The notes below the pieces were generated by a model. The model was not told the DNA's origin. It saw only the letters and a list, made by a program, of their open reading frames with translations, and ran no database searches. From the IMG/VR virus record IMGVR_UViG_2778261033_000015: DNA of 39,669 bases. One strand, 5' to 3'. Below are positions 1 to 19,499 of the stretch, in pieces (within the stretch, counting starts at the first letter, position 1; every line of letters begins with the position of its first letter). This stretch comes from a virus (lineage: Duplodnaviria; Heunggongvirae; Uroviricota; Caudoviricetes). Both the position numbers and the translations under genes were made by a program.

Positions 1-70
1 GTTCTGCGGGGCCGGTTTTTCGATGACATTTTCTTTCCTCTGGTGACAAGCTATATGGCGAGGATTTTAC

Positions 71-301
71 ATGGCTGTGCTTCGTACGTTACCGGGCAGA
101 ATCAAAACTCTGAACACCCGGCGGATAAATGTCCTGAGGGGGGAACAGCGTCGTGTCAGTGGCAGTGCCCGGGTTTCCCTCAAACGTCGTATCTGGCGGA
201 GGGATGCCGGACACTGTTGTCTCTGTAGACGCGTGGTTGACCTTTGTGACAGTGAACTCGATCACCGCATTGCACTTCAGTTCGGTGGTGGTAATGAGGA
301 G
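71..301 (+). pseudogene. HNH endonuclease gene, 5' fragment, disrupted by prophage insertion
   Basis: ORF reads ...HCCLCRRVVDLCDSELDHRIALQFGGGNEE up to 301 (C-x2-C, DH, GG of an HNH motif); the rest of the motif (TNLWTLCTECHRQK) resumes in frame at 39598. The ORF tail 302..412 is phage end sequence. Start at 71 not verified. Confidence 0.6.
297..301. repeat. Target-site duplication, left copy (AGGAG)
   Basis: AGGAG at 297-301 and 39593-39597 is the only 5-mer shared by the two junctions; deleting the element plus one copy restores the HNH reading frame. Confidence 0.55.
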
Positions 302-384
302 TATAGCGCGGCGATTTTTTTGATACCGATTTGCATTTCATTTGATACCGCTGAAAAACGCCGATACGCAACTTATTTGATACT
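302..384. repeat. Right-end (attR-side) subterminal repeats, candidate transposase binding sites
   Basis: Three direct copies of TTTGATAC(C/T) at 319-327, 341-349, 376-384; the same motif occurs three times in inverted orientation at the other end (39422-39576). Confidence 0.5.
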
Positions 385-429
385 AAATCGGCGCTTTTCT
401 TTTGAGTTTTAGAATGAGTTTTTAAGCGC

Positions 430-1167
430 TCATTCACTCTCTTTCAAACCAGTTTTAACTGTTTGTGGTTTTGGGTAAGGCTGGACTTTGAATAGCTTTG
501 TGTTGAGGCGTTTTCTGGCCCTCTTGTTCAGAAACCGGATGTAACGAAACTGTCGGAACTTATGCACACTGGCTCTGTCGATATTAGCCCTCAGATGTTC
601 ACCTCGTTGTCCGCCTCGTTTAATGGCATTCCTGCAAATCTCGTGATACCACTCGCCATCAAGTTCATAGAATGTTGATTCATGGCTGCCTACATAATCA
701 AAATTGCTTGCCTGATACACGACACCAAGACAGCCACAACGCTCATCTGCAAACGACTGAACCCACTGTACCTGCGGATAAAGCTGCCTGATTAGCTTGA
801 GCGCGTAACTGATTGCCCTTGATTCGGAGTTTCTCGGCATACAGTCATGCATCCATAGCCGGTTAAGCTCCATATATTCTCGGTTCTGCGTACCCGTTAC
901 GACGCGTGCACCACTGTTTGGGTTAAGGGCGTAACCCCATTGCATTACGCCAACAAGTTCCCGTTCTGAAAATATACCCAGATGAAGGTAGGAATTATTT
1001 ACGAAACGGTGGCTGTAATGTTTATTGACGATAACCAGTCTGGCCAGCCAGCAACTTATTGTCTCAACCCGCAACTCACGGGAGCCATAACCAACGATAT
1101 TGTCGTTATAGCGAATAAGTTCAGGCGTGCTGATGATACGGGATGTGACTTGCTTTCTGTTCCCCAC
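430..1167 (-). CDS. mom: DNA modification protein Mom
   Basis: 245-aa ORF with the Mom-like ...NKHYSHR... segment; last gene before the phage end; its start overlaps the stop of the upstream com-like ORF as in Mu. Confidence 0.8.
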
Positions 1168-1321
1168 GACAGGATTTCCTTGTGTATGTGGGGTGCTCTG
1201 TGGCGCTCGGAGATGTGATTTGATTGAGGGTTTTACTGCGCGGACATTTTACTTCCAGATAACTGAAACTGGCCCGTGCCAGTAGCTTATTGCAGTGTCG
1301 GCACCGTATGTTTCGATACAT
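1121..1321 (-). CDS. com: Com, zinc-finger translational activator of mom
   Basis: ...[29 protein letters not shown]... resembles Mu Com (IRCKNCNKLL...EIRCPRCK); overlaps mom start. Start set at internal Met (1321); the ORF extends to 1366. Confidence 0.75.
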
Positions 1322-1359
1322 GACCGCATAACCTCCTGCTTTGTTGTTGATGCCTTTCT

Positions 1360-1395
1360 CATGCAATCGATCGACAAAAACGATCGATTCGATTT
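1360..1395 (-). promoter_or_regulatory. Candidate Dam-methylation-sensitive regulatory region upstream of com/mom
   Basis: Palindromic ATCGATCGACAAAAACGATCGAT with two GATC sites (1369-1372, 1382-1385), 13 bp apart, about 50 bp upstream of com; Mu has a GATC cluster in the equivalent place. Confidence 0.45.
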
Positions 1396-1594
1396 GTTTA
1401 ATTGATACAACAAATAGATTGAAAAGTCATCAACAATGATTCAGGGAGGTGATTATTTACTTAAAGAAAACGAAGAGTTAGGTGGTGAAAACGATCATAA
1501 AATGATCATTTTATTGACTTTTTATACAGTGAAGGTAGGATCACGCGTATATGTAGTATGTTTCAAATCAACAGGATACTACATAAAAGTGAAA

Positions 1595-1620
1595 CCCAGC
1601 ATAGCTGGAACTATGCTGGG
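1595..1620 (-). terminator. Candidate intrinsic terminator (minus strand) insulating com/mom from upstream transcription
   Basis: Perfect 10-bp stem CCCAGCATAG/CTATGCTGGG with 6-nt loop; on the minus strand it is followed by TTTCACTTTTAT. Confidence 0.3.
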
Positions 1621-1742
1621 TCAATCTGTAAAAACTTGCATCAATGCTTTACTTCGAGCTCGTGGCGTATCCTATGATATTCCCCGGTCTCCTGTAAAGC
1701 AGAGATGCATAAAAAGGAGATCTTTATCATGGATGAAAGAGC

Positions 1743-1900
1743 CTGTTTGCCCTGCCTGTAAGACTCCCTTACAGCTCATCTATCGCCGTTCTCGATCTCA
1801 AAATGGCAAGACATACAAACCCAAAAATGCTTCCTGTTTCAGGATGCTGATATGTCCTGCCTGTTCTCCCAGGAGGGAAAATACACAAAACGTGCATTAA
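1743..1900 (+). CDS. Small zinc-ribbon protein (hypothetical)
   Basis: 55 aa with CPAC...(29 aa)...CPAC; strong Shine-Dalgarno AAGGAG at 1724-1729. Opposite strand to the phage genes; could be spurious. Confidence 0.3.
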
Positions 1901-1938
1901 CAAACTCACCCGGCAGGGAAACCTGCCGGTCGGTATTG

Positions 1939-2184
1939 TTACATCATAGTACCGTCAGTTCCGGGCTGAACCGGCTCTGGTTGCTCTACGGGTTGAGGAT
2001 CATTTTCCGTGCTGTTTTCAGCCGGAGAACGGCCAACCATTCGGGCCAGCACTTCATCAACATATGCGTCGATTTGTGCCTCAAAATCCTTGCGAACCTG
2101 CGCCTTCAGCACGCGGTTCACTTCTTCAGAATAAAGTGCCTGTTTGACAAGCTCTTCAGTAACCGTGCCTTTAATCTCTGGCAT
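1939..2184 (-). CDS. Hypothetical 81-aa acidic protein (cargo island)
   Basis: ORF with strong RBS (AAGGAG, 7 nt before ATG); acidic, Pro/Glu-rich C-terminus. Confidence 0.5.
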   Translation of the reverse strand: MPEIKGTVTEELVKQALYSEEVNRVLKAQVRKDFEAQIDAYVDEVLARMVGRSPAENSTENDPQPVEQPEPVQPGTDGTMM

Positions 2185-2219
2185 GAATATTCTCCTTTTG
2201 CAGGTATATTGCCCCGTTA

Positions 2220-2402
2220 TCAGAGCGGGGTCGGGTCGTTTGGGGATGACGGTGCCTGTGCTGTTTTACTGAGTTTTTCAGCTGCCGCATCATCAATTTT
2301 ACGGCGAATATAATTTCTGATGACCTTATAACCACCGCTCACCAGATATAACGCACTGACCACAGCGCAGAAATAAAGCAGCATTGTATGAACGAATGTC
2401 AT
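2220..2402 (-). CDS. Hypothetical 60-aa small membrane protein (cargo island)
   Basis: RBS AAGGTAAGG before ATG; N-terminal hydrophobic helix (LLYFCAVVSALYLVSGG) followed by basic tail. Confidence 0.5.
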   Translation of the reverse strand: MTFVHTMLLYFCAVVSALYLVSGGYKVIRNYIRRKIDDAAAEKLSKTAQAPSSPNDPTPL

Positions 2403-2548
2403 ATAACCTTACCTTTGATATTGACTACATAATTCGTTATCGGGTAAAAACATCGAAGCGACTGATAACCACTCCTTCGGGAGTATTTTTATTTTCCTTT
2501 ATGGGTTAGGTAGCTCCCGCCAGCCATATCATGACCGGCGGGATTTTT

Positions 2549-4588
2549 TTATTCTGTTACCGCTTTTTTCACTTCCACCACAATGCTGTCAATCAGCACC
2601 GGGTAAGTTGCATTTTTTGTGATATCCGTTACGCGGAGTTTGTCCACCGGGAAAGTTCCTACTGGTGACTGCGTCAGGGTAAACGCGGCACCATCCTGAC
2701 CATCAATAACCGGAATAACCTGAAGGCTGTTATTTCCTGCAAAACGGAAGGCCAGCGTATGCCATTCATTATCAAATGCACCAAAGGTTCCCAGTTTCTG
2801 GTTATTTGTTGCCACTTTTGCATTGTGGTACATCACATTCAGGTCTTTTGCGTCTGTCTGGATGTAGAACGATGCCAGCAGATTATTCCCTGCATCCCCT
2901 GTCAGGGTGACACCCTGCGGCAGAGAGGAAACCGGCCAGTAAAGCCCCATGACATACTGGTTTGCCACCAGGTCGCCAGGTACTTTAAAACGACAACTGA
3001 TTAAACCACCATTTTTCAGCAGTTCAGCACCAGTACCGGCATCATGATCCAGATACCAAGATGATTTACCTGTTTCCTTGGTCAGTTTCATTGCCTTACC
3101 ACCTGTGCCTCCTGCATCACTGATAATTTCAGCTTTACCGCCAGCCGGCTCCCAGCCCTGGGCTTTCAGATTTCCTTCTGACTCACTGACACGATAAGAC
3201 AGCAGTGTTGTGGTTACTGCTTCAGTTTCTGAAGGTGACGGCACTGGTGCTTCAGTTTCAGAAGATGGAACATCGGCTTTTACTGTGGTTCGCCCCGCAT
3301 GAGTCAGAACTGCCGTGGCCAGACGGTCGGAAATAATCCCACGACGTGCCCATGAACTGAAATGGCTGGCCCGGTCCGCAGATGTCCAGGTGGCGGCACT
3401 GTTACGCCACGTTGAGCCGTAATAACCAATGGATTCAATATCCGGGTCTTCTGCCGGATTGTTGGTGGGTACATTCGCGTCATTTTCATCTGTCATTAAT
3501 GGAACGAAATGAATGTTTTTATCTGTTTTGTTTTTGTAGCCGCCATAGATTGCCTGGTATGCCGGTTCATTTTTCTGTTTCCAGAAATACGTGGTATCGC
3601 CACAAATCCACGGAACGCCAGCAGCACTGCCACCGGTACACTGTTCCGCCTGTTCAGCCAGGTCTGCGCGGAATTTTTCCACCATCGCCAGAAACAGCGC
3701 GGAATGCTCCGTCGGCTTCGCATCAATATCAAACTCGCCCTGCATCCACACCACAGCAAGCAGGCGGTTTTTCGGGTTCTTCGCCAGTGCCGCTTTTGTC
3801 CGGCTGATTAAGTCCTTATACAGCGGCTTATCCACACCCCAGCGGGCTGAGTCCTCTGAAGCACCCGTGCTGTCACTGTACGTGCCGTCAGCACCCGCCG
3901 TGAATGCAGAACCACCACGGCAGCAGGGAACCAGCAGAATCCCCGCATCTGCCGGAATAAACGGCAGCAGTTTTTTGGCAATGTGAAGCCCCTGACCCAC
4001 GGTGCCATATTGCCCTTTAGCCACATCCGCTTTCGGGTGATTTTTTCCACTCATATCCTGCACATCATGCAGACAGTGGTCGGCCAGAATGATGTCGTTA
4101 TACTGACAGGCTTTACCTCCCGGCGTGACTGTACTGCGACGGGCTAACTGCATAATACGCGGTTCGGGGCGGTCATATGTCTCCGGCAGTGGCAGACCTT
4201 CACCGTAAGCCATACCGTTTGACTGACCAGCAAGAACCACCACGTAATACCAGGAAGGGGAGCTGGAAGCAGTTTCATTTCCTGACGGACGGGTATGTGT
4301 TTCAGCATTATCCCAGTCTGACGGTTCAGCAGTACCGGCAACATCAGCACTTAACGGAATGACCGCACCAATACCCGCTCCGGTAATTTCCACACTCGGA
4401 TCACCGGATACTGGCCTTACCCACAGGCAATCCCGTGTATTAAAACTGATGAGACAGTCAGCAAATGTCATTCCTCCTTTTGTTTCGGCCGGAGGAAAGG
4501 GAGCCTCAAGAAATGCCGCTGTACCACCGGAAACTTTAACAGTAAAGTTTCCGGGCATTGATGATAGTTGAACCCATTTGGACGTCAT
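2549..4588 (-). CDS. SASA/SGNH-family carbohydrate O-acetylesterase with C-terminal lectin-like domain (prophage cargo; resembles NanS-p type sialate O-acetylesterases)
   Basis: 679-aa ORF with GQSNGM (catalytic Ser block), WMQGEFD (SASA block II) and a ~220-aa beta-rich C-terminal region (...NEWHTLAFRF...). Sits between gin and com/mom, where Mu has no gene. Confidence 0.75.
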   Translation of the reverse strand: MTSKWVQLSSMPGNFTVKVSGGTAAFLEAPFPPAETKGGMTFADCLISFNTRDCLWVRPVSGDPSVEITGAGIGAVIPLSADVAGTAEPSDWDNAETHTRPSGNETASSSPSWYYVVVLAGQSNGMAYGEGLPLPETYDRPEPRIMQLARRSTVTPGGKACQYNDIILADHCLHDVQDMSGKNHPKADVAKGQYGTVGQGLHIAKKLLPFIPADAGILLVPCCRGGSAFTAGADGTYSDSTGASEDSARWGVDKPLYKDLISRTKAALAKNPKNRLLAVVWMQGEFDIDAKPTEHSALFLAMVEKFRADLAEQAEQCTGGSAAGVPWICGDTTYFWKQKNEPAYQAIYGGYKNKTDKNIHFVPLMTDENDANVPTNNPAEDPDIESIGYYGSTWRNSAATWTSADRASHFSSWARRGIISDRLATAVLTHAGRTTVKADVPSSETEAPVPSPSETEAVTTTLLSYRVSESEGNLKAQGWEPAGGKAEIISDAGGTGGKAMKLTKETGKSSWYLDHDAGTGAELLKNGGLISCRFKVPGDLVANQYVMGLYWPVSSLPQGVTLTGDAGNNLLASFYIQTDAKDLNVMYHNAKVATNNQKLGTFGAFDNEWHTLAFRFAGNNSLQVIPVIDGQDGAAFTLTQSPVGTFPVDKLRVTDITKNATYPVLIDSIVVEVKKAVTE

Positions 4589-4687
4589 AATAATCAGCCT
4601 GTTCCTGAATAAACTGAATTATCATATCCACAGACCGATAAACGCCATTTTGCGTTAATTCAGTAAAGGCCCAACAAAGGGAGCGTC

Positions 4688-5248
4688 TTATTTTTCCGAA
4701 ACGCTCGCAGGATAATAACGATAAAGGGTTGAAAGGCCGATATCAAAAATAAGTGCCACCTGTCTTCGACTGACACCCCCGGCCAGTAAACGCCCGACCT
4801 GCTCGTATTGTTCCTGCGTGAGACGACGGGGTCTGCCGCCGGTTCGTCCCCTTTCACGGGCAGCTGCAAGACCAGCCCGTGTCCGTTCGACAATTAATTC
4901 ACGCTCCATTTCTGCCAGCGCACCCATTATGTGAAAAAAGAAGCGCCCCATGGGGGTTGACGTATCAATGTTGTCAGTAAGACTACGAAAATTTATCCCC
5001 TGTTGCTGTAATTCATCTGTCAGCGCAACAAGGTGGCGCATACTGCGCCCCAGCCTGTCCAGTTTCCAGACCATCAGTGTGTCACCGGGTTTTAGTTTCT
5101 TCAGTGCCCGCTTCAGTCCCGGCCGCTGTGTCGTTTTACCACTCATTTTATCTTCAAAAATCTGCTCACATCCTGCACATTCCAGCGCATTTCTTTGTAA
5201 ACCTGTGTTCTGGTCATTTGTTGATACGCGTATATAGCCAATCAGCAT
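4688..5248 (-). CDS. gin: Serine recombinase, DNA invertase Gin
   Basis: MLIGYIRVSTNDQNTGLQRNAL...GRPRRLTQEQ... near-identical over long stretches to Gin/Hin/Pin/Cin invertases; adjacent to the invertible segment. Confidence 0.95.
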   Translation of the reverse strand: MLIGYIRVSTNDQNTGLQRNALECAGCEQIFEDKMSGKTTQRPGLKRALKKLKPGDTLMVWKLDRLGRSMRHLVALTDELQQQGINFRSLTDNIDTSTPMGRFFFHIMGALAEMERELIVERTRAGLAAARERGRTGGRPRRLTQEQYEQVGRLLAGGVSRRQVALIFDIGLSTLYRYYPASVSEK

Positions 5249-5303: not shown

Positions 5304-5327
5304 TCCCTGAAACCTCGGTTTACGGGA
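5304..5327. other. gix-like crossover site (gin-proximal)
   Basis: TCCCTGAAACC-TC-GGTTTACGGGA: imperfect palindrome matching the Mu gix half-site TTCCTGTAAACC; 2-bp core TC. Confidence 0.55.
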
Positions 5328-5673
5328 TACTGTAAACAGGGCCGCGAATGCCCTGCCATCGAACGGAGCGGCTGTTGCAGCGAATAAACTCGCCACTCCA
5401 AGAAATATTAATGGTGTCCCATTTGACGGAACGCAGGATATAAATATTACATCGGGGATGACGCAGTCTGTGGCTGACTCACGTTATGTTCAAAGCATTC
5501 GAAGAGGTTCAAGGTCAACGATTGGAATGCAATATAATATTTTTGAGGTTCCTGACGGATGCGTACTTACAGGGCTTGATGTCGCTGGTGATGGTAATGC
5601 AACGGTAACCGCATATTATCGACCTGTTCAGTTTCTGATAGATGGTTCGTGGAAAACAGCTTCCAGCGCATAA
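5316..5673 (+). CDS. Silent alternative tail-fibre C-terminal cassette (S'v), no start codon of its own
   Basis: Plus-strand frame reads GLRDTVNRAANALPSNGAAVAANKLATPRNINGVPFDGT...YYRPVQFLIDGSWKTASSA, parallel to the C-terminus of the expressed fibre; open from the gix site onward. Confidence 0.65.
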
Positions 5674-6308: not shown

Positions 6309-7220
6309 TTACACTGAACTTACCGTTCTCCAGGCATTATTAATATAAATCTGAACCGGGCGATAATAGACCCCACCGATATTGTCCGCAGACCGGGAGC
6401 CGGTTTCCTGCACGTTAATTCCGGAAAGCATACAACCGGAAGGTGCGCTGTAATTCCATGACATTTCATTGCCTCCGGGTGAATGATAGCTCTGTGCTCC
6501 AAGCTGAACATTCTGTACATACCGGCCATCTGCGGTTGACTGCGTCATTCCTGACGTGATGTTGATATCCAGCGTTCCGTCAAAAGGAACACCATTAATA
6601 TTTCTTGGGGTGGCGAGTCTGTTTGCTGCCACGGCGGTTCCACCCGATGGCAGGGCATCAGCAGCCTTATTTACCGTTTCCCGTAAACCGACGTTATCGA
6701 TAAAAGCGCCTTTATCCGGAATGTCTGCGCCGTTCTGCTCCCTGCGCAGGTAACGGTTATCACCTTCGCTTTTGCTGTAAACATCCAGATTATTACGGGC
6801 GGTTCCCGCATTCTCCAGGTCGGCAAGGTTCTGATCCTTCGCCAGAGCATTAACGTCACCGGGACCAAGACTGTTTTTTGTGGCAAGCGCCCCAAGACCA
6901 AGATAACCACGGGCAAGACGCTGGGCTTCCGCACCGGCATCAGCAATTTCTTTCAGGTTGTTTTTCCGGGAAAAGGCATTCGCAGCGATAATGGCTTTAA
7001 TGGACAGCGTAAGCTGGTTTAACTGCGCCTTATCCGGCTGAATACTGGCTTCAGCCAGAATATTCAGCAGTTCGGCCTGGAGAATATTCAGCCAGTCCTG
7101 ACCAATCCAGCTGATACCTTTTTGTCCGTCACCTTCGGTAAACCAGGTGGTGGTATTACTCTGCGCCGGTGCCAGCGCAGGCATATTCGCCACGCCGGAA
7201 TTATTATCAACATGGAACAT
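6309..7220 (-). CDS. Tail fibre protein (S-like; constant part plus currently expressed variable cassette Sv)
   Basis: 303 aa from ATG at 7220 (RBS GAGGAG, TAATG overlap with upstream gene); N-terminus ...WFTEGDG... and C-terminus ...YYRPVQIYINNAWRTVSSV resemble P2 H / Mu S fibres; the gix site lies within it. Confidence 0.8.
   Translation of the reverse strand: MFHVDNNSGVANMPALAPAQSNTTTWFTEGDGQKGISWIGQDWLNILQAELLNILAEASIQPDKAQLNQLTLSIKAIIAANAFSRKNNLKEIADAGAEAQRLARGYLGLGALATKNSLGPGDVNALAKDQNLADLENAGTARNNLDVYSKSEGDNRYLRREQNGADIPDKGAFIDNVGLRETVNKAADALPSGGTAVAANRLATPRNINGVPFDGTLDINITSGMTQSTADGRYVQNVQLGAQSYHSPGGNEMSWNYSAPSGCMLSGINVQETGSRSADNIGGVYYRPVQIYINNAWRTVSSV
6679..6702. other. gix-like crossover site (within tail-fibre gene)
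   Basis: TCCCGTAAACC-GA-CGTTATCGATA; inner arm and core are the exact reverse complement of the inner arm and core of the site at 5304-5327. Confidence 0.55.
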
Positions 7221-17703: not shown

Positions 17704-18119
17704 ATGAAGCCCTTCTGGTTGCGCCCGAATACCGCTGCATCAGACTGAACCTGTGGTAAATCCCCGGATTCAGGGGCCGCACCGTTCGTATCCACACCGA
17801 CCGGCACATTGCCGTTCATGACATCTTTCAGCCAGGCCAGCGCTTCACGGTAACGGTCACGCGCCTGATCGGAGGCTCGCTGATCGCACAGGTAATAAAA
17901 GGCAATCGCGCAACAGTGCTGAACAAGAACGGCCGGAATAACCTCCAGCGGCAACGTGTAACGGGCGGACAGATAGCTGTCGATAAGGGCTGACGCATCT
18001 GTCAGCGCCCGGTTCAGCTTGCGCGTGTCCGGCTCATCCGAACGGGGCACAGCCAGTAACGGCCTGAGCAAATCCTCGCGGTAACGCGCCCGCATATCGG
18101 TTTCAGTGGCGTAATTCAT
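17700..18119 (-). CDS. Head-tail connector/completion protein (Mu gp36-like)
   Basis: 139 aa, MNYATETDMRARYRED... N-terminus typical of the gp36 family. Confidence 0.6.
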   Translation of the reverse strand: MNYATETDMRARYREDLLRPLLAVPRSDEPDTRKLNRALTDASALIDSYLSARYTLPLEVIPAVLVQHCCAIAFYYLCDQRASDQARDRYREALAWLKDVMNGNVPVGVDTNGAAPESGDLPQVQSDAAVFGRNQKGFI

Positions 18120-18508
18120 GCACGGGCCTGTTCCGCTTTGTTACCGGTCTTTTTCCGGGGAGCATCCTGTCCGGCTTCGGCTTCGGCTTCGGCTTCGGCT
18201 TCGGCTTCGGCTTCGGCTTCGGCTTCGGCTAAATCTGTACCGGCCACTGCATGAACCACACCCGCCACGCTCCCCGCATCATCAGCAGACGTCTGTAGTA
18301 TTCGCACAGTGAGGCATGGCTCCTCCTCCAGTCGGGCAAGCTGCTCCGGGGTGACCTCAACCTGCTGACGTCCACGCGTGAACAGGAACCCCGCACGACG
18401 AAACGCCGAACGACTGCAACGCACTTCTGCCAGCACCGTGACAGAATTGTCACCACTGACCTGAAGACCTGAATCATCTGTTGCTGCCACAGTGTGATGT
18501 TCATTCAT
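18116..18508 (-). CDS. Hypothetical head-region protein (Mu gp35 position) carrying a (Glu-Ala)10 tract
   Basis: 130-aa ORF between the major head and gp36-like genes; contains ...LAEAEAEAEAEAEAEAEAEAEAG... encoded by the hexanucleotide repeat. Confidence 0.6.
   Translation of the reverse strand: MNEHHTVAATDDSGLQVSGDNSVTVLAEVRCSRSAFRRAGFLFTRGRQQVEVTPEQLARLEEEPCLTVRILQTSADDAGSVAGVVHAVAGTDLAEAEAEAEAEAEAEAEAEAGQDAPRKKTGNKAEQARA
18172..18229. repeat. Perfect tandem hexanucleotide repeat (GGCTTC) x ~9.7 inside a CDS
   Basis: ggcttcggcttcggcttc... read directly from the sequence; in frame, encoding (EA)n on the minus strand. Confidence 0.95.
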
Positions 18509-18551: not shown

Positions 18552-19499
18552 TTACAGATAATCCGCGACAACCAGCTCCAGCTTACCCTTCATCTCGTTA
18601 GAGACGGTTGCGTTTCCGTCTGCGAACAGTTCACGCTCCAGCAGCTGCACCGCCTGTTTTTCCAGCGAGGTGGGGACAACAATATGGGTGGGTTTAATGC
18701 CGAGTTTGCGGCCACCGTCAGCGGTAAATTCGCGCATGGCTGACCAGCCGTGCCACAGTGCATCCAGCGTCAGCGGTGACTGCATCATGTAGGCCATCTG
18801 CCAGAAGCCGTAGCCCACATTGCGACGGGCGGATGCACCAAACACAAATTCGTTATCGGTGAATGCGCGACCTTCATCGACTTTGGTCTGGGCAACCAGT
18901 TCAGCCTTACGGCGATCCTGATAAATCAGCGGTTTTACCGCGCGGGAGCAGTCAAGCAGATACCAGGCCGGACCGCTGTAATCAGCCTGTGCGCCGACAG
19001 AGCCGGTTTTTGCCACAAACATATTGCTGACCATCTGCGCATCCCCGGAGCCATCCACTTTGGGGTAAACCGGATGTTCGGTATCAAAGAAGTTCTGACC
19101 GTCATAGCAGGCCGCACTGATCCCGTCACGCAGGGCAGCAAAGACCAGCTCATCCGGTTGTACCGCCGCAGCGCGCCCCATCTCCTGGAACAACGGGGAA
19201 TAAATACCGAGGTTGTCGTCTTCGAAGTCATCGCGGCTAATGGCGACAGTGCCTTCAAAAGTTTTGTTCACGATGGCATAGCCATAGGCTTTCATCTTCT
19301 CGATGACGCGGGAGCCGATCCACTCACGGAACTGCGGGAACTGCCCCAGCCAGCCGTAGGTGTTGGATTTCGATGTGGAGGGCACGGTCATCGCAATTTT
19401 TTTATACTGCGACGGGGCCATGGACATCCCGGCCTGAAAATCAGAACGGTAGCCCGTCATCAGGGCTGTGATCATCGCCGGTGTAATCGGGGTAGGCAT
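18552..19499 (-). CDS. Major head subunit (Mu T-like)
   Basis: 315-aa ORF directly downstream of the I-like protease/scaffold gene. Confidence 0.85.
   Translation of the reverse strand: MPTPITPAMITALMTGYRSDFQAGMSMAPSQYKKIAMTVPSTSKSNTYGWLGQFPQFREWIGSRVIEKMKAYGYAIVNKTFEGTVAISRDDFEDDNLGIYSPLFQEMGRAAAVQPDELVFAALRDGISAACYDGQNFFDTEHPVYPKVDGSGDAQMVSNMFVAKTGSVGAQADYSGPAWYLLDCSRAVKPLIYQDRRKAELVAQTKVDEGRAFTDNEFVFGASARRNVGYGFWQMAYMMQSPLTLDALWHGWSAMREFTADGGRKLGIKPTHIVVPTSLEKQAVQLLERELFADGNATVSNEMKGKLELVVADYL

Follow-up and report, generated by a model that had tools for sequence, protein, structure and literature searches.

The right end of a Mu-like transposable prophage, contained in the 39,669-nucleotide stretch of viral DNA analysed here (IMG/VR record IMGVR_UViG_2778261033_000015; 'the window' refers to this whole stretch), carries a gene for a 679-residue protein. 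We identify the product as a sialate O-acetylesterase of the NanS-p family, fixed at the right end of a lineage of Mu-like transposable prophages of Escherichia coli, Shigella and Salmonella, and we place the probability of this reading at roughly 0.8. The chemistry of NanS-p and its lectin-like tail are known from lambdoid phages, including those encoding Shiga toxin (Stx); what is new is that the N-terminal domain is of another kind and that the phages belong to another family.

An esterase module between gin and com

The 679-residue open reading frame (ORF) was confirmed at window positions 2549-4588 on the minus strand, with its stop codon at 2549-2551. Pfam searches and RefSeq annotation place it in the order gin, esterase, DUF1378, DUF826, com, mom, the last two being normal Mu right-end genes that here lie downstream of the esterase and its two small companions:

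2549..4588, minus strand: NanS-p-type sialate O-acetylesterase gene (ORF; Pfam SASA and DUF6645; phrog_143; PDB 3PT5 and 6YP6)
4688..5248, minus strand: gin DNA invertase, directly upstream of the esterase (Pfam Resolvase and HTH_7)
2220..2402, minus strand: DUF1378 gene, second in the module, 60 residues, hydrophobic helix at the N-terminus (Pfam DUF1378, E = 1.2e-38)
1939..2184, minus strand: DUF826 gene, 81 residues, acidic, third gene of the module (Pfam DUF826, E = 2.8e-15)
1121-1321, minus strand: com (Pfam Zn_ribbon_Com; RefSeq annotation)
430-1167, minus strand: mom (Pfam Mom; RefSeq annotation)

The helix of the DUF1378 protein is seen as a 19-residue Kyte-Doolittle maximum of 2.0 at residue 3. 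In phage Mu the end of gin (35673) and the start of com (35768) are 94 bp apart, whereas in the window the interval from the gin stop to the com start (1322-4687) spans ~3.37 kb. The flanking genes gin and mom are 71.5% and 71.3% identical to those of Mu at the nucleotide level, and the stretch between them cannot be aligned to Mu. Assignment of the prophage to the Mu-like phages is based on the presence of Mom, Com and Resolvase, of the Mu Gp36, Mu Gp37 and FluMu_N families, and on insertions in varied host genes (Pfam, RefSeq); a 'Bacteriophage Mu-like phage' insertion with its target duplication is annotated in LC727881. The first 5.4 kb of the window match E. coli O157 strain AR-0430 at 100% identity; in that strain the Mu-like prophage is inserted in the HNH endonuclease gene of a lambdoid prophage, just past the lysis cassette; the prophage end lies near window position 302.

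The same three genes occur together in lambdoid phages. Both Stx1 and Stx2 phages encode nanS-p, DUF1378, DUF826 and holin in this order, with the trio situated between stx and the holin gene. The window DUF1378 protein is 51% identical to the product of the gene that follows nanS-p in Stx phages, and the DUF826 protein shares 38% identity with its lambdoid counterpart, which is encoded ahead of the holin gene. The esterase is far closer, with 81-82% amino acid identity to Stx-phage NanS-p in the catalytic domain, 78-83% in the C-terminal domain and 78-81% DNA identity over the body, the DNA homology running from the start of the catalytic domain (window 4250) to a few codons short of the stop. 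Given the divergence of the small genes (51% and 38%) relative to the esterase body (81-83%), we conclude that the shared arrangement is old and that the esterase body was exchanged more recently. The esterase, DUF1378 and DUF826 form one module, and the esterase is not a lone gene.

The enzyme body is that of a NanS-type esterase

The Pfam family SASA (PF03629; CAZy CE6-like) matched residues 116-312 with 46.0 bits against a curated cut-off of 24.8, DUF6645 (PF20350) matched residues 524-642 (E = 2.4e-69), and in PHROGs residues 62-677 fell within phrog_143 (1027 bits). Residues 104-428 aligned to E. coli NanS/YjhS (PDB 3PT5; E = 1.9e-118, a 63%-type match) and residues 459-674 to the C-terminal lectin-like domain of NanS-p (PDB 6YP6; E = 1e-111). 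The parts of the enzyme body are delimited as follows:

3299..4252, minus strand: SASA/SGNH catalytic domain, residues 113-430 (3PT5 match and block positions)
3215..3298, minus strand: linker 2, residues 431-458, rich in Ser, Pro, Glu and Thr (alignment)
2552..3214, minus strand: C-terminal lectin-like jelly-roll domain (DUF6645), residues 459-679 (6YP6, Pfam)

Using the catalytic block definitions of two SGNH reviews (PMC10792757, PMC9487903), four SGNH/SASA blocks were located: GQSNG (residues 121-125), RGGSAF (224-229), MQGEFD (282-287) and SHFS (408-411). The corresponding blocks of 3PT5 are given as GQSNA, RGGSAF, MQGEFD and SHFS (PMC10792757). On this alignment Ser123 (codon 4220-4222) is the predicted nucleophile and His409 (codon 3362-3364) the predicted base, with RGGSAF and MQGEFD the putative oxyanion elements of blocks II and III. 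The Asp of the canonical DxxH motif is missing from the 679-residue protein; this is not disqualifying, since EcNanS itself is without the block V Asp (PMC9487903). Both Ser and His are invariant in 25/25 distinct variants, and the ratio of non-synonymous to synonymous substitution rates (dN/dS) is 0.10-0.24 across all esterase domains. The exact protein is present on at least 999 contigs in public databases under the names 'sialate O-acetylesterase' or 'DUF6645 domain-containing protein'. The identity of the enzyme is secure and is already reflected in these names.

Linker 2 contains a near-tandem 30-nt duplication (direct repeat D2 at 3218-3267, encoding PSSETEAP and PSPSETEA), and linker lengths vary among relatives. 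Prediction of the full-length esterase by AlphaFold2 without an alignment was unusable, with a mean per-residue confidence (pLDDT) of 34.

An initial reading of this DNA (the sequence-only reading), for which no database was searched, had already proposed a SASA/SGNH esterase with GQSN and WxQGE blocks and a beta-rich, carbohydrate-binding C-terminal tail, encoded in extra DNA between gin and com/mom. The enzyme class is borne out by the SASA score and by the residues W-M-Q-G-E within positions 281-287, the tail is lectin-like as described above, and the extra DNA relative to Mu lies where it was proposed. We found no signal-peptide-like N-terminus, again in line with that reading, the highest 15-residue Kyte-Doolittle mean in the first 60 residues being 0.85. 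Its comparison to the architecture of NanS-p holds for the SASA core and the lectin tail and fails at the N-terminus, where DUF1737 was unmatched at E<=1.

The module is a fixed feature of the lineage

A 5-kb baseplate segment of the prophage, taken as a marker of the backbone, was found at 285 places in 231 of 5,426 complete E. coli genomes. The N-terminus of the esterase occurs there as two DNA types, type A at 246 places in 205 genomes and type B at 39 places in 28 genomes, so that esterase places (246 + 39 = 285) equal backbone places. The lineage is present in about 4% of complete E. coli genomes, mostly those of E. coli that make Shiga toxin (STEC), and its carriers are mostly STEC and enterohaemorrhagic (EHEC) strains of bovine and human origin; as many as 4 backbone copies occur in some complete genomes.

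The association extends to diverged relatives. Seven relatives have 80-87% DNA identity in the backbone and as little as 68-75% identity in single structural proteins; in all seven, including one that lacks gin, esterase, DUF1378 and DUF826 are at the same site. The host genes disrupted by these relatives (a fimbrial usher gene, hofC, hsdR, a motility gene, a paa gene, dmsA and a gene for a pyridoxal phosphate enzyme) are as varied as expected for an actively transposing phage. In all 34 IMG/VR contigs carrying the N-terminal domain (N-domain) of the esterase, the genes run baseplate, tail fibre, (gin), esterase, DUF1378, DUF826, com, mom. In Salmonella enterica, one contig has an N-domain that is 26-29% identical, fused to the start of an esterase and located directly after Mu-type baseplate, tail-fibre and invertase genes.

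Taken together, the equal place counts, the relatives and the Salmonella locus indicate that the module is a fixed feature of this lineage, though Mu itself is without it. The module is in essentially every copy of the lineage and is not sporadic cargo. The proposal of the sequence-only reading that the esterase is cargo, carried as an island, implies an occasional insertion and is therefore not upheld; the opposite case that it allowed for, that the gene is ordinary backbone, applies in part, the module being universal in this lineage and absent from Mu. The lineage is probably of the kind described as Sp18 of O157 Sakai, judging by how Sp18 is described, as Sakai's Mu-like prophage; the Sp18 papers do not discuss the esterase gene. 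Mitomycin C is reported not to induce Sp18, for which spontaneous induction is predicted (PMC2669165).

An orphan domain takes the place of DUF1737

Lambdoid NanS-p proteins begin with DUF1737, whereas the N-terminus of the window protein is of a different kind that does not align with theirs:

4349..4588, minus strand: N-terminal orphan all-beta domain (Mu-type N-domain, replaces DUF1737), residues 1-80
4253..4348, minus strand: linker 1, residues 81-112, predicted disordered (pLDDT 42-56), with SSSP at residues 108-111; recombination breakpoint region

Pfam searches found no family at E<=1 for residues 1-112 of the window protein or for the N-terminus of its type B relative, and in the same search the lambdoid homologue from an Stx2a phage scored DUF1737 (PF08410) with E = 1.6e-11. 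AlphaFold2, run with a four-sequence alignment, predicted an all-beta structure for residues 1-78 (pLDDT 74-88) followed by a disordered linker to residue 112. This model showed no detectable structural similarity to DUF1737 or to known decoration proteins and no significant fold match; its weak fold matches include PA14 carbohydrate-binding domains and cupins.

The domain is rare in databases. A full HMMER scan of 1.84 billion representative proteins gave five matches to the N-domain, four of them N-terminal fragments of such esterases (two extending into the esterase start) and the fifth a weak local match in a 1445-residue repeat protein. Nothing but fragments of the same protein came back when the N-domain was used in word-indexed protein searches, a profile scan of the GTDB species-representative genomes (one genome per species) found nothing, and among 50,697 deposited phage genomes the domain is confined to two Mu-like insertions within Stx phages. 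Between types A and B the proportions of non-synonymous and synonymous differences are 0.25 (pN) and 0.77 (pS, saturated), and within types dN/dS is 0.05-0.21. The N-domain is under purifying selection. We regard it as a predicted orphan beta fold of ~80 residues, previously undescribed and found only in Mu-like contexts.

To relate N-terminus and phage type, we took the 80 loci whose catalytic domains were closest and considered the 78 new IMG/VR contigs that these included. There, DUF1737-type N-termini were in a lambdoid context in all 64 contigs that had markers, with 7 more on short contigs without markers; Mu-type N-termini were accompanied by Mu markers only (4 contigs), and no crossovers were found. 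Because the Mu-type copy differs in both N-domain and context, counts of nanS-p that rely on DUF1737 or on lambdoid context miss it.

The enzyme body is exchanged at the linker

Comparison of the window with five relatives (L017-L020 and L045) revealed identities of 97-98% in the N-domain, 67-69% in the catalytic domain and 40-47% in the C-terminal domain. Between the window and L045 the synonymous divergence (dS) is 0.11 for the N-domain and 2.3 for the catalytic domain, a jump that points to a recombination breakpoint in linker 1. The enzyme body, in both its catalytic and its lectin part, swaps at the linker with other alleles, lambdoid ones included, while the N-domain is retained.

We also searched for structural genes that vary together with the N-domain. 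In 8 genomes the homologue of Mu gp35 tracks N-domain type, as more mildly does gp36, with the intervening tail genes shuffled:

18116-18508, minus strand: HI1506-related protein, Mu gp35 homologue (Pfam FluMu_N), with an (EA)n repeat of varying length

The differences between gp35 types amount to ~10 substitutions and a change in (EA)n length, seen over roughly six independent lineages, and the covariation with the N-domain is a weak lead. The gp35 homologue is probably structural; gpT is encoded at 18552-19499.

Transcription signals around the module

Folding of the RNA located two hairpins in and after the module:

1900..1929, minus strand: terminator-like hairpin with an 8-bp GC-rich stem and UUUC loop, then GUGAGUUUGUU (RNA fold)
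2515..2543, minus strand: 13-bp hairpin directly past the esterase stop codon (RNA fold, -23.2 kcal/mol, z -3.8)

The first has a folding energy of -20.7 kcal/mol (z -4.2; 0/200 shuffles as stable) and a U-rich tail, and is likely the end of the module transcript. The second has no U tail on the minus strand and is followed by U7 on the plus strand; it could be a plus-strand terminator, or an RNA-stabilizing or attenuating element between esterase and DUF1378. The 99-nt spacer between gin and the esterase showed no terminator-like structure (fold z -1.2).

Proposed function and alternatives

Studies of NanS and NanS-p relatives describe their function and the access to N-acetylneuraminic acid (Neu5Ac) that they give after lysis (PMC8065619, PMC8319020). 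By extension from these enzymes, the window esterase would take 9-O-acetyl (and 7/8-O-acetyl) groups off sialic acids, both free and bound to mucin. Its gene would be read through from gin and/or the late tail operon, transcription stopping at the hairpin after DUF826, and in the absence of a signal peptide the protein would reach its substrate only upon lysis of the cell by the phage. Its release may then benefit the surviving lysogen population through access to Neu5Ac. The N-domain might in addition let Mu-like particles carry the enzyme, in the way that DUF1737 serves on phi24B.

Several observations weigh against the reading of a fixed NanS-p-type esterase with this function. The presumed substrate specificity is extrapolated from enzymes that are 63-82% identical. 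A few copies are truncated (L012 and L024, 523 and 499 residues), indicating that the gene, though conserved overall, is at times inactivated and can be lost. The association between N-domain type and backbone is perfect, yet this is expected from linkage alone: homologous recombination is possible only inside the shared enzyme body, and the association consequently proves no backbone-specific function. A scan for sigma-70 promoters returned no more sites than chance and identified no promoter, and the Mu C-protein site (TTATN6ATAA) was unmatched anywhere in the window; as this includes the region upstream of mom, the motif is uninformative here.

Two accounts of what the enzyme is for deserve the most attention. 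In the first, which we would put slightly short of even odds, the esterase is purely of benefit to the lysogen (a 'moron' gene), a public good released by lysis of a subpopulation and allowing growth on O-acetylated sialic acids, and the N-domain is an extra carbohydrate-binding or oligomerization domain without a virion role. Lambdoid NanS-p supports growth on the 9-O-acetylated sialic acid Neu5,9Ac2 and de-O-acetylates mucin glycans (PMC8065619). The predominance of cattle and human STEC/EHEC among the carriers fits this account, and a small beta-sandwich is typical of carbohydrate-binding modules, in keeping with the PA14 and cupin fold matches. The gene also lies downstream of gin, which in Mu is expressed in lysogens, so that low-level expression in the lysogen is plausible. 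This account leaves unexplained why the N-termini of the two phage types differ completely when the rest is 80% identical, and why the module is universal in the lineage; moreover, an enzyme without a signal peptide would still depend on phage lysis.

The second account, which we consider tentative and on balance doubtful, holds that the esterase functions first of all as part of the virion. Its Mu-type N-domain would attach it to the head or neck, as the counterpart of the DUF1737 anchor of phi24B, and particles would bind or cross O-acetylated mucus, with possible later proteolytic release at the SSSP linker. The precedent is a preprint on phi24B, in which the DUF1737 domain of gp84 is a hexameric capsid-decorating anchor plugged into hexons and processing of gp84 is proposed near an SISSP motif (bioRxiv 10.64898/2026.04.10.717836); the Mu-type copy differs exactly in the domain that the preprint names as capsid anchor. 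A virion-associated enzyme had been an alternative in the sequence-only reading, and the analogy with phi24B makes it more plausible. Also in its favour, DUF1737 is replaced by another small folded domain that is under purifying selection and restricted to Mu-like backbones, this domain is kept while the enzyme body is swapped, an SSSP motif marks the boundary of N-domain and linker, the gene is situated where the late/tail region ends, the module accompanies every backbone copy as a structural gene would, and the gp35 homologue covaries with N-domain type. Against it stand the lack of structural similarity between the N-domain and DUF1737 or any known decoration protein, the sufficiency of linkage to explain the backbone association, and the small extent of the gp35 covariation over few independent lineages. 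In a cryo-electron microscopy paper on Mu, gp35 was not resolved and no decoration protein is listed among the identified virion proteins, and Mu is without the gene, so Mu-type morphogenesis does not need it.

The corresponding proposal, that the Mu-type N-domain is a second, independently evolved virion-docking module, rests on the same analogy and is offered with the same reserve. If true, lambdoid podoviruses and siphoviruses (through DUF1737) and Mu-like myoviruses (through the orphan beta domain) would both display the same esterase/lectin cassette, the primary role of NanS-p-type enzymes would be phage-centred (mucus binding or passage) and not host nutrition, and the enzyme body would serve as an interchangeable cartridge, passed by recombination at the linker between prophages that share a host. 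The domain swap can be thought of as a natural experiment on whether these esterases are for the bacterium, in sialic acid nutrition, or for the phage particle, in its interaction with mucus.

It is improbable that the enzyme modifies the receptor, de-O-acetylating O-antigen or capsule in the manner of SGNH-esterase tailspikes and so aiding adsorption or blocking superinfection. The possibility has been raised for NanS-p in a review (PMC8065619), residues 210-311 match the 'tail protein' family phrog_25867 weakly (E = 4.4e-5), and the gene adjoins the tail-fibre/invertase region. The catalytic domain nevertheless matches NanS (E = 1.9e-118), characterized as most active on 9-O-acetyl-Neu5Ac (PMC9487903), and is 81-82% identical to NanS-p; nor is there serotype matching, the same allele being present in O157, O26, O103 and O111 strains. 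The least credible reading, which the distribution data refute, is that lambdoid DNA entered one Mu-like prophage in a recent, single event, as a 'cargo island': the 78-81% DNA identity of the esterase body to Stx-phage nanS-p and the location of this prophage copy inside a lambdoid prophage would fit, but the module is at the same site in relatives of 80-87% identity and in Salmonella, its DUF1378 and DUF826 share only 51% and 38% identity with their lambdoid counterparts, a search for direct or inverted repeats on either side of it found none, and esterase and backbone places number 285 each.

Relation to known systems

The nearest known proteins are the lambdoid NanS-p enzymes, found on Stx and non-Stx prophages of EHEC (933W L0105/z1466; phi24B gp84, also vb_24B_21). 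They share with the window protein the SASA core, DUF6645 tail, similar length, lack of a signal peptide, downstream DUF1378 and DUF826 genes and carriage on prophages in STEC. They differ in starting with DUF1737, where the window protein has an unrelated ~80-residue beta domain and a longer linker, and in genomic position, the lambdoid gene being in the late region between Q/stx and the lysis cassette and the window gene between gin and com/mom of a Mu-like myophage. The resemblance to phi24B gp84 extends to the overall plan of a small N-domain, linker, esterase, second linker and lectin-like domain, with an SSP-type motif at the first linker; the DUF1737 of phi24B, described as composed of a helix and three strands, is of another fold class than the window N-domain, which is predicted to be all-beta. 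Chromosomal NanS (YjhS, 3PT5) is homologous over the whole length of the catalytic domain and shares all four blocks, with the Ser-His pair among them, but it is a single domain of ~326-337 residues, without an N-domain or a lectin-like C-terminal domain, and belongs to the nan regulon and not to a phage.

The right ends of Mu, D108 and SfMu have homologous gin, com and mom genes in the same order and orientation, with an invertible tail-fibre segment upstream, and the gene arrangement of SfMu has been described as Mu-like. Where Mu has 94 bp between gin and com, the window lineage has ~3.4 kb with the esterase trio and a degenerate opposite-strand ORF. Studies of NanS-p diversity considered only DUF1737-type N-termini in Stx phages. 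In the searchable literature we found no paper that combines nanS-p with Mu-like phages and none that mentions DUF6645.

Neighbouring features of the right end

The opposite-strand ORF (window 1436-1900, plus strand, 154 residues) lies in the interval between DUF826 and com and belongs to phrog_26524. Its product has a C-terminal CPAC...CPAC zinc-ribbon-like motif and matches neither Pfam nor PADLOC. In L004, L005, L044-L046 and many IMG/VR loci the ORF is frameshifted, cut short or in fragments, and it looks like a decaying gene. No PADLOC defence family was detected in the four proteins of the island, and no Rfam family in the window.

Beside gin, inverted matches at window 5311-5469 and 6538-6703 surround the tail-fibre and tail-fibre-assembly genes and form the boundaries of an invertible G-like segment. 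Among related loci the tail-fibre assembly genes are found in either orientation, consistent with active inversion. At the prophage end, the first ~301 bases of window 1-412 are lambdoid prophage DNA and the HNH endonuclease gene is broken at ~302, leaving a fusion ORF (71-412) that RefSeq names 'HNH endonuclease'; holin, lysozyme, antirepressor and Rz genes are located immediately outside the prophage end in L001, an insertion of prophage in prophage.

Two related loci differ at this end. In the Mu-like phage inserted in Stx2c phage JNE082796 (L002), whose esterase module is ~93.5% identical to that of the window, unrelated sequence (3102-4204, compared with window 402-1154) replaces most of mom, indicating that the extreme right end is also mosaic. 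An IMG/VR locus (L026, 10831-12691) contains a second, inverted set of mom, com and DUF826 ~4.7 kb past the first module, which suggests two Mu-like prophages lying end to end.

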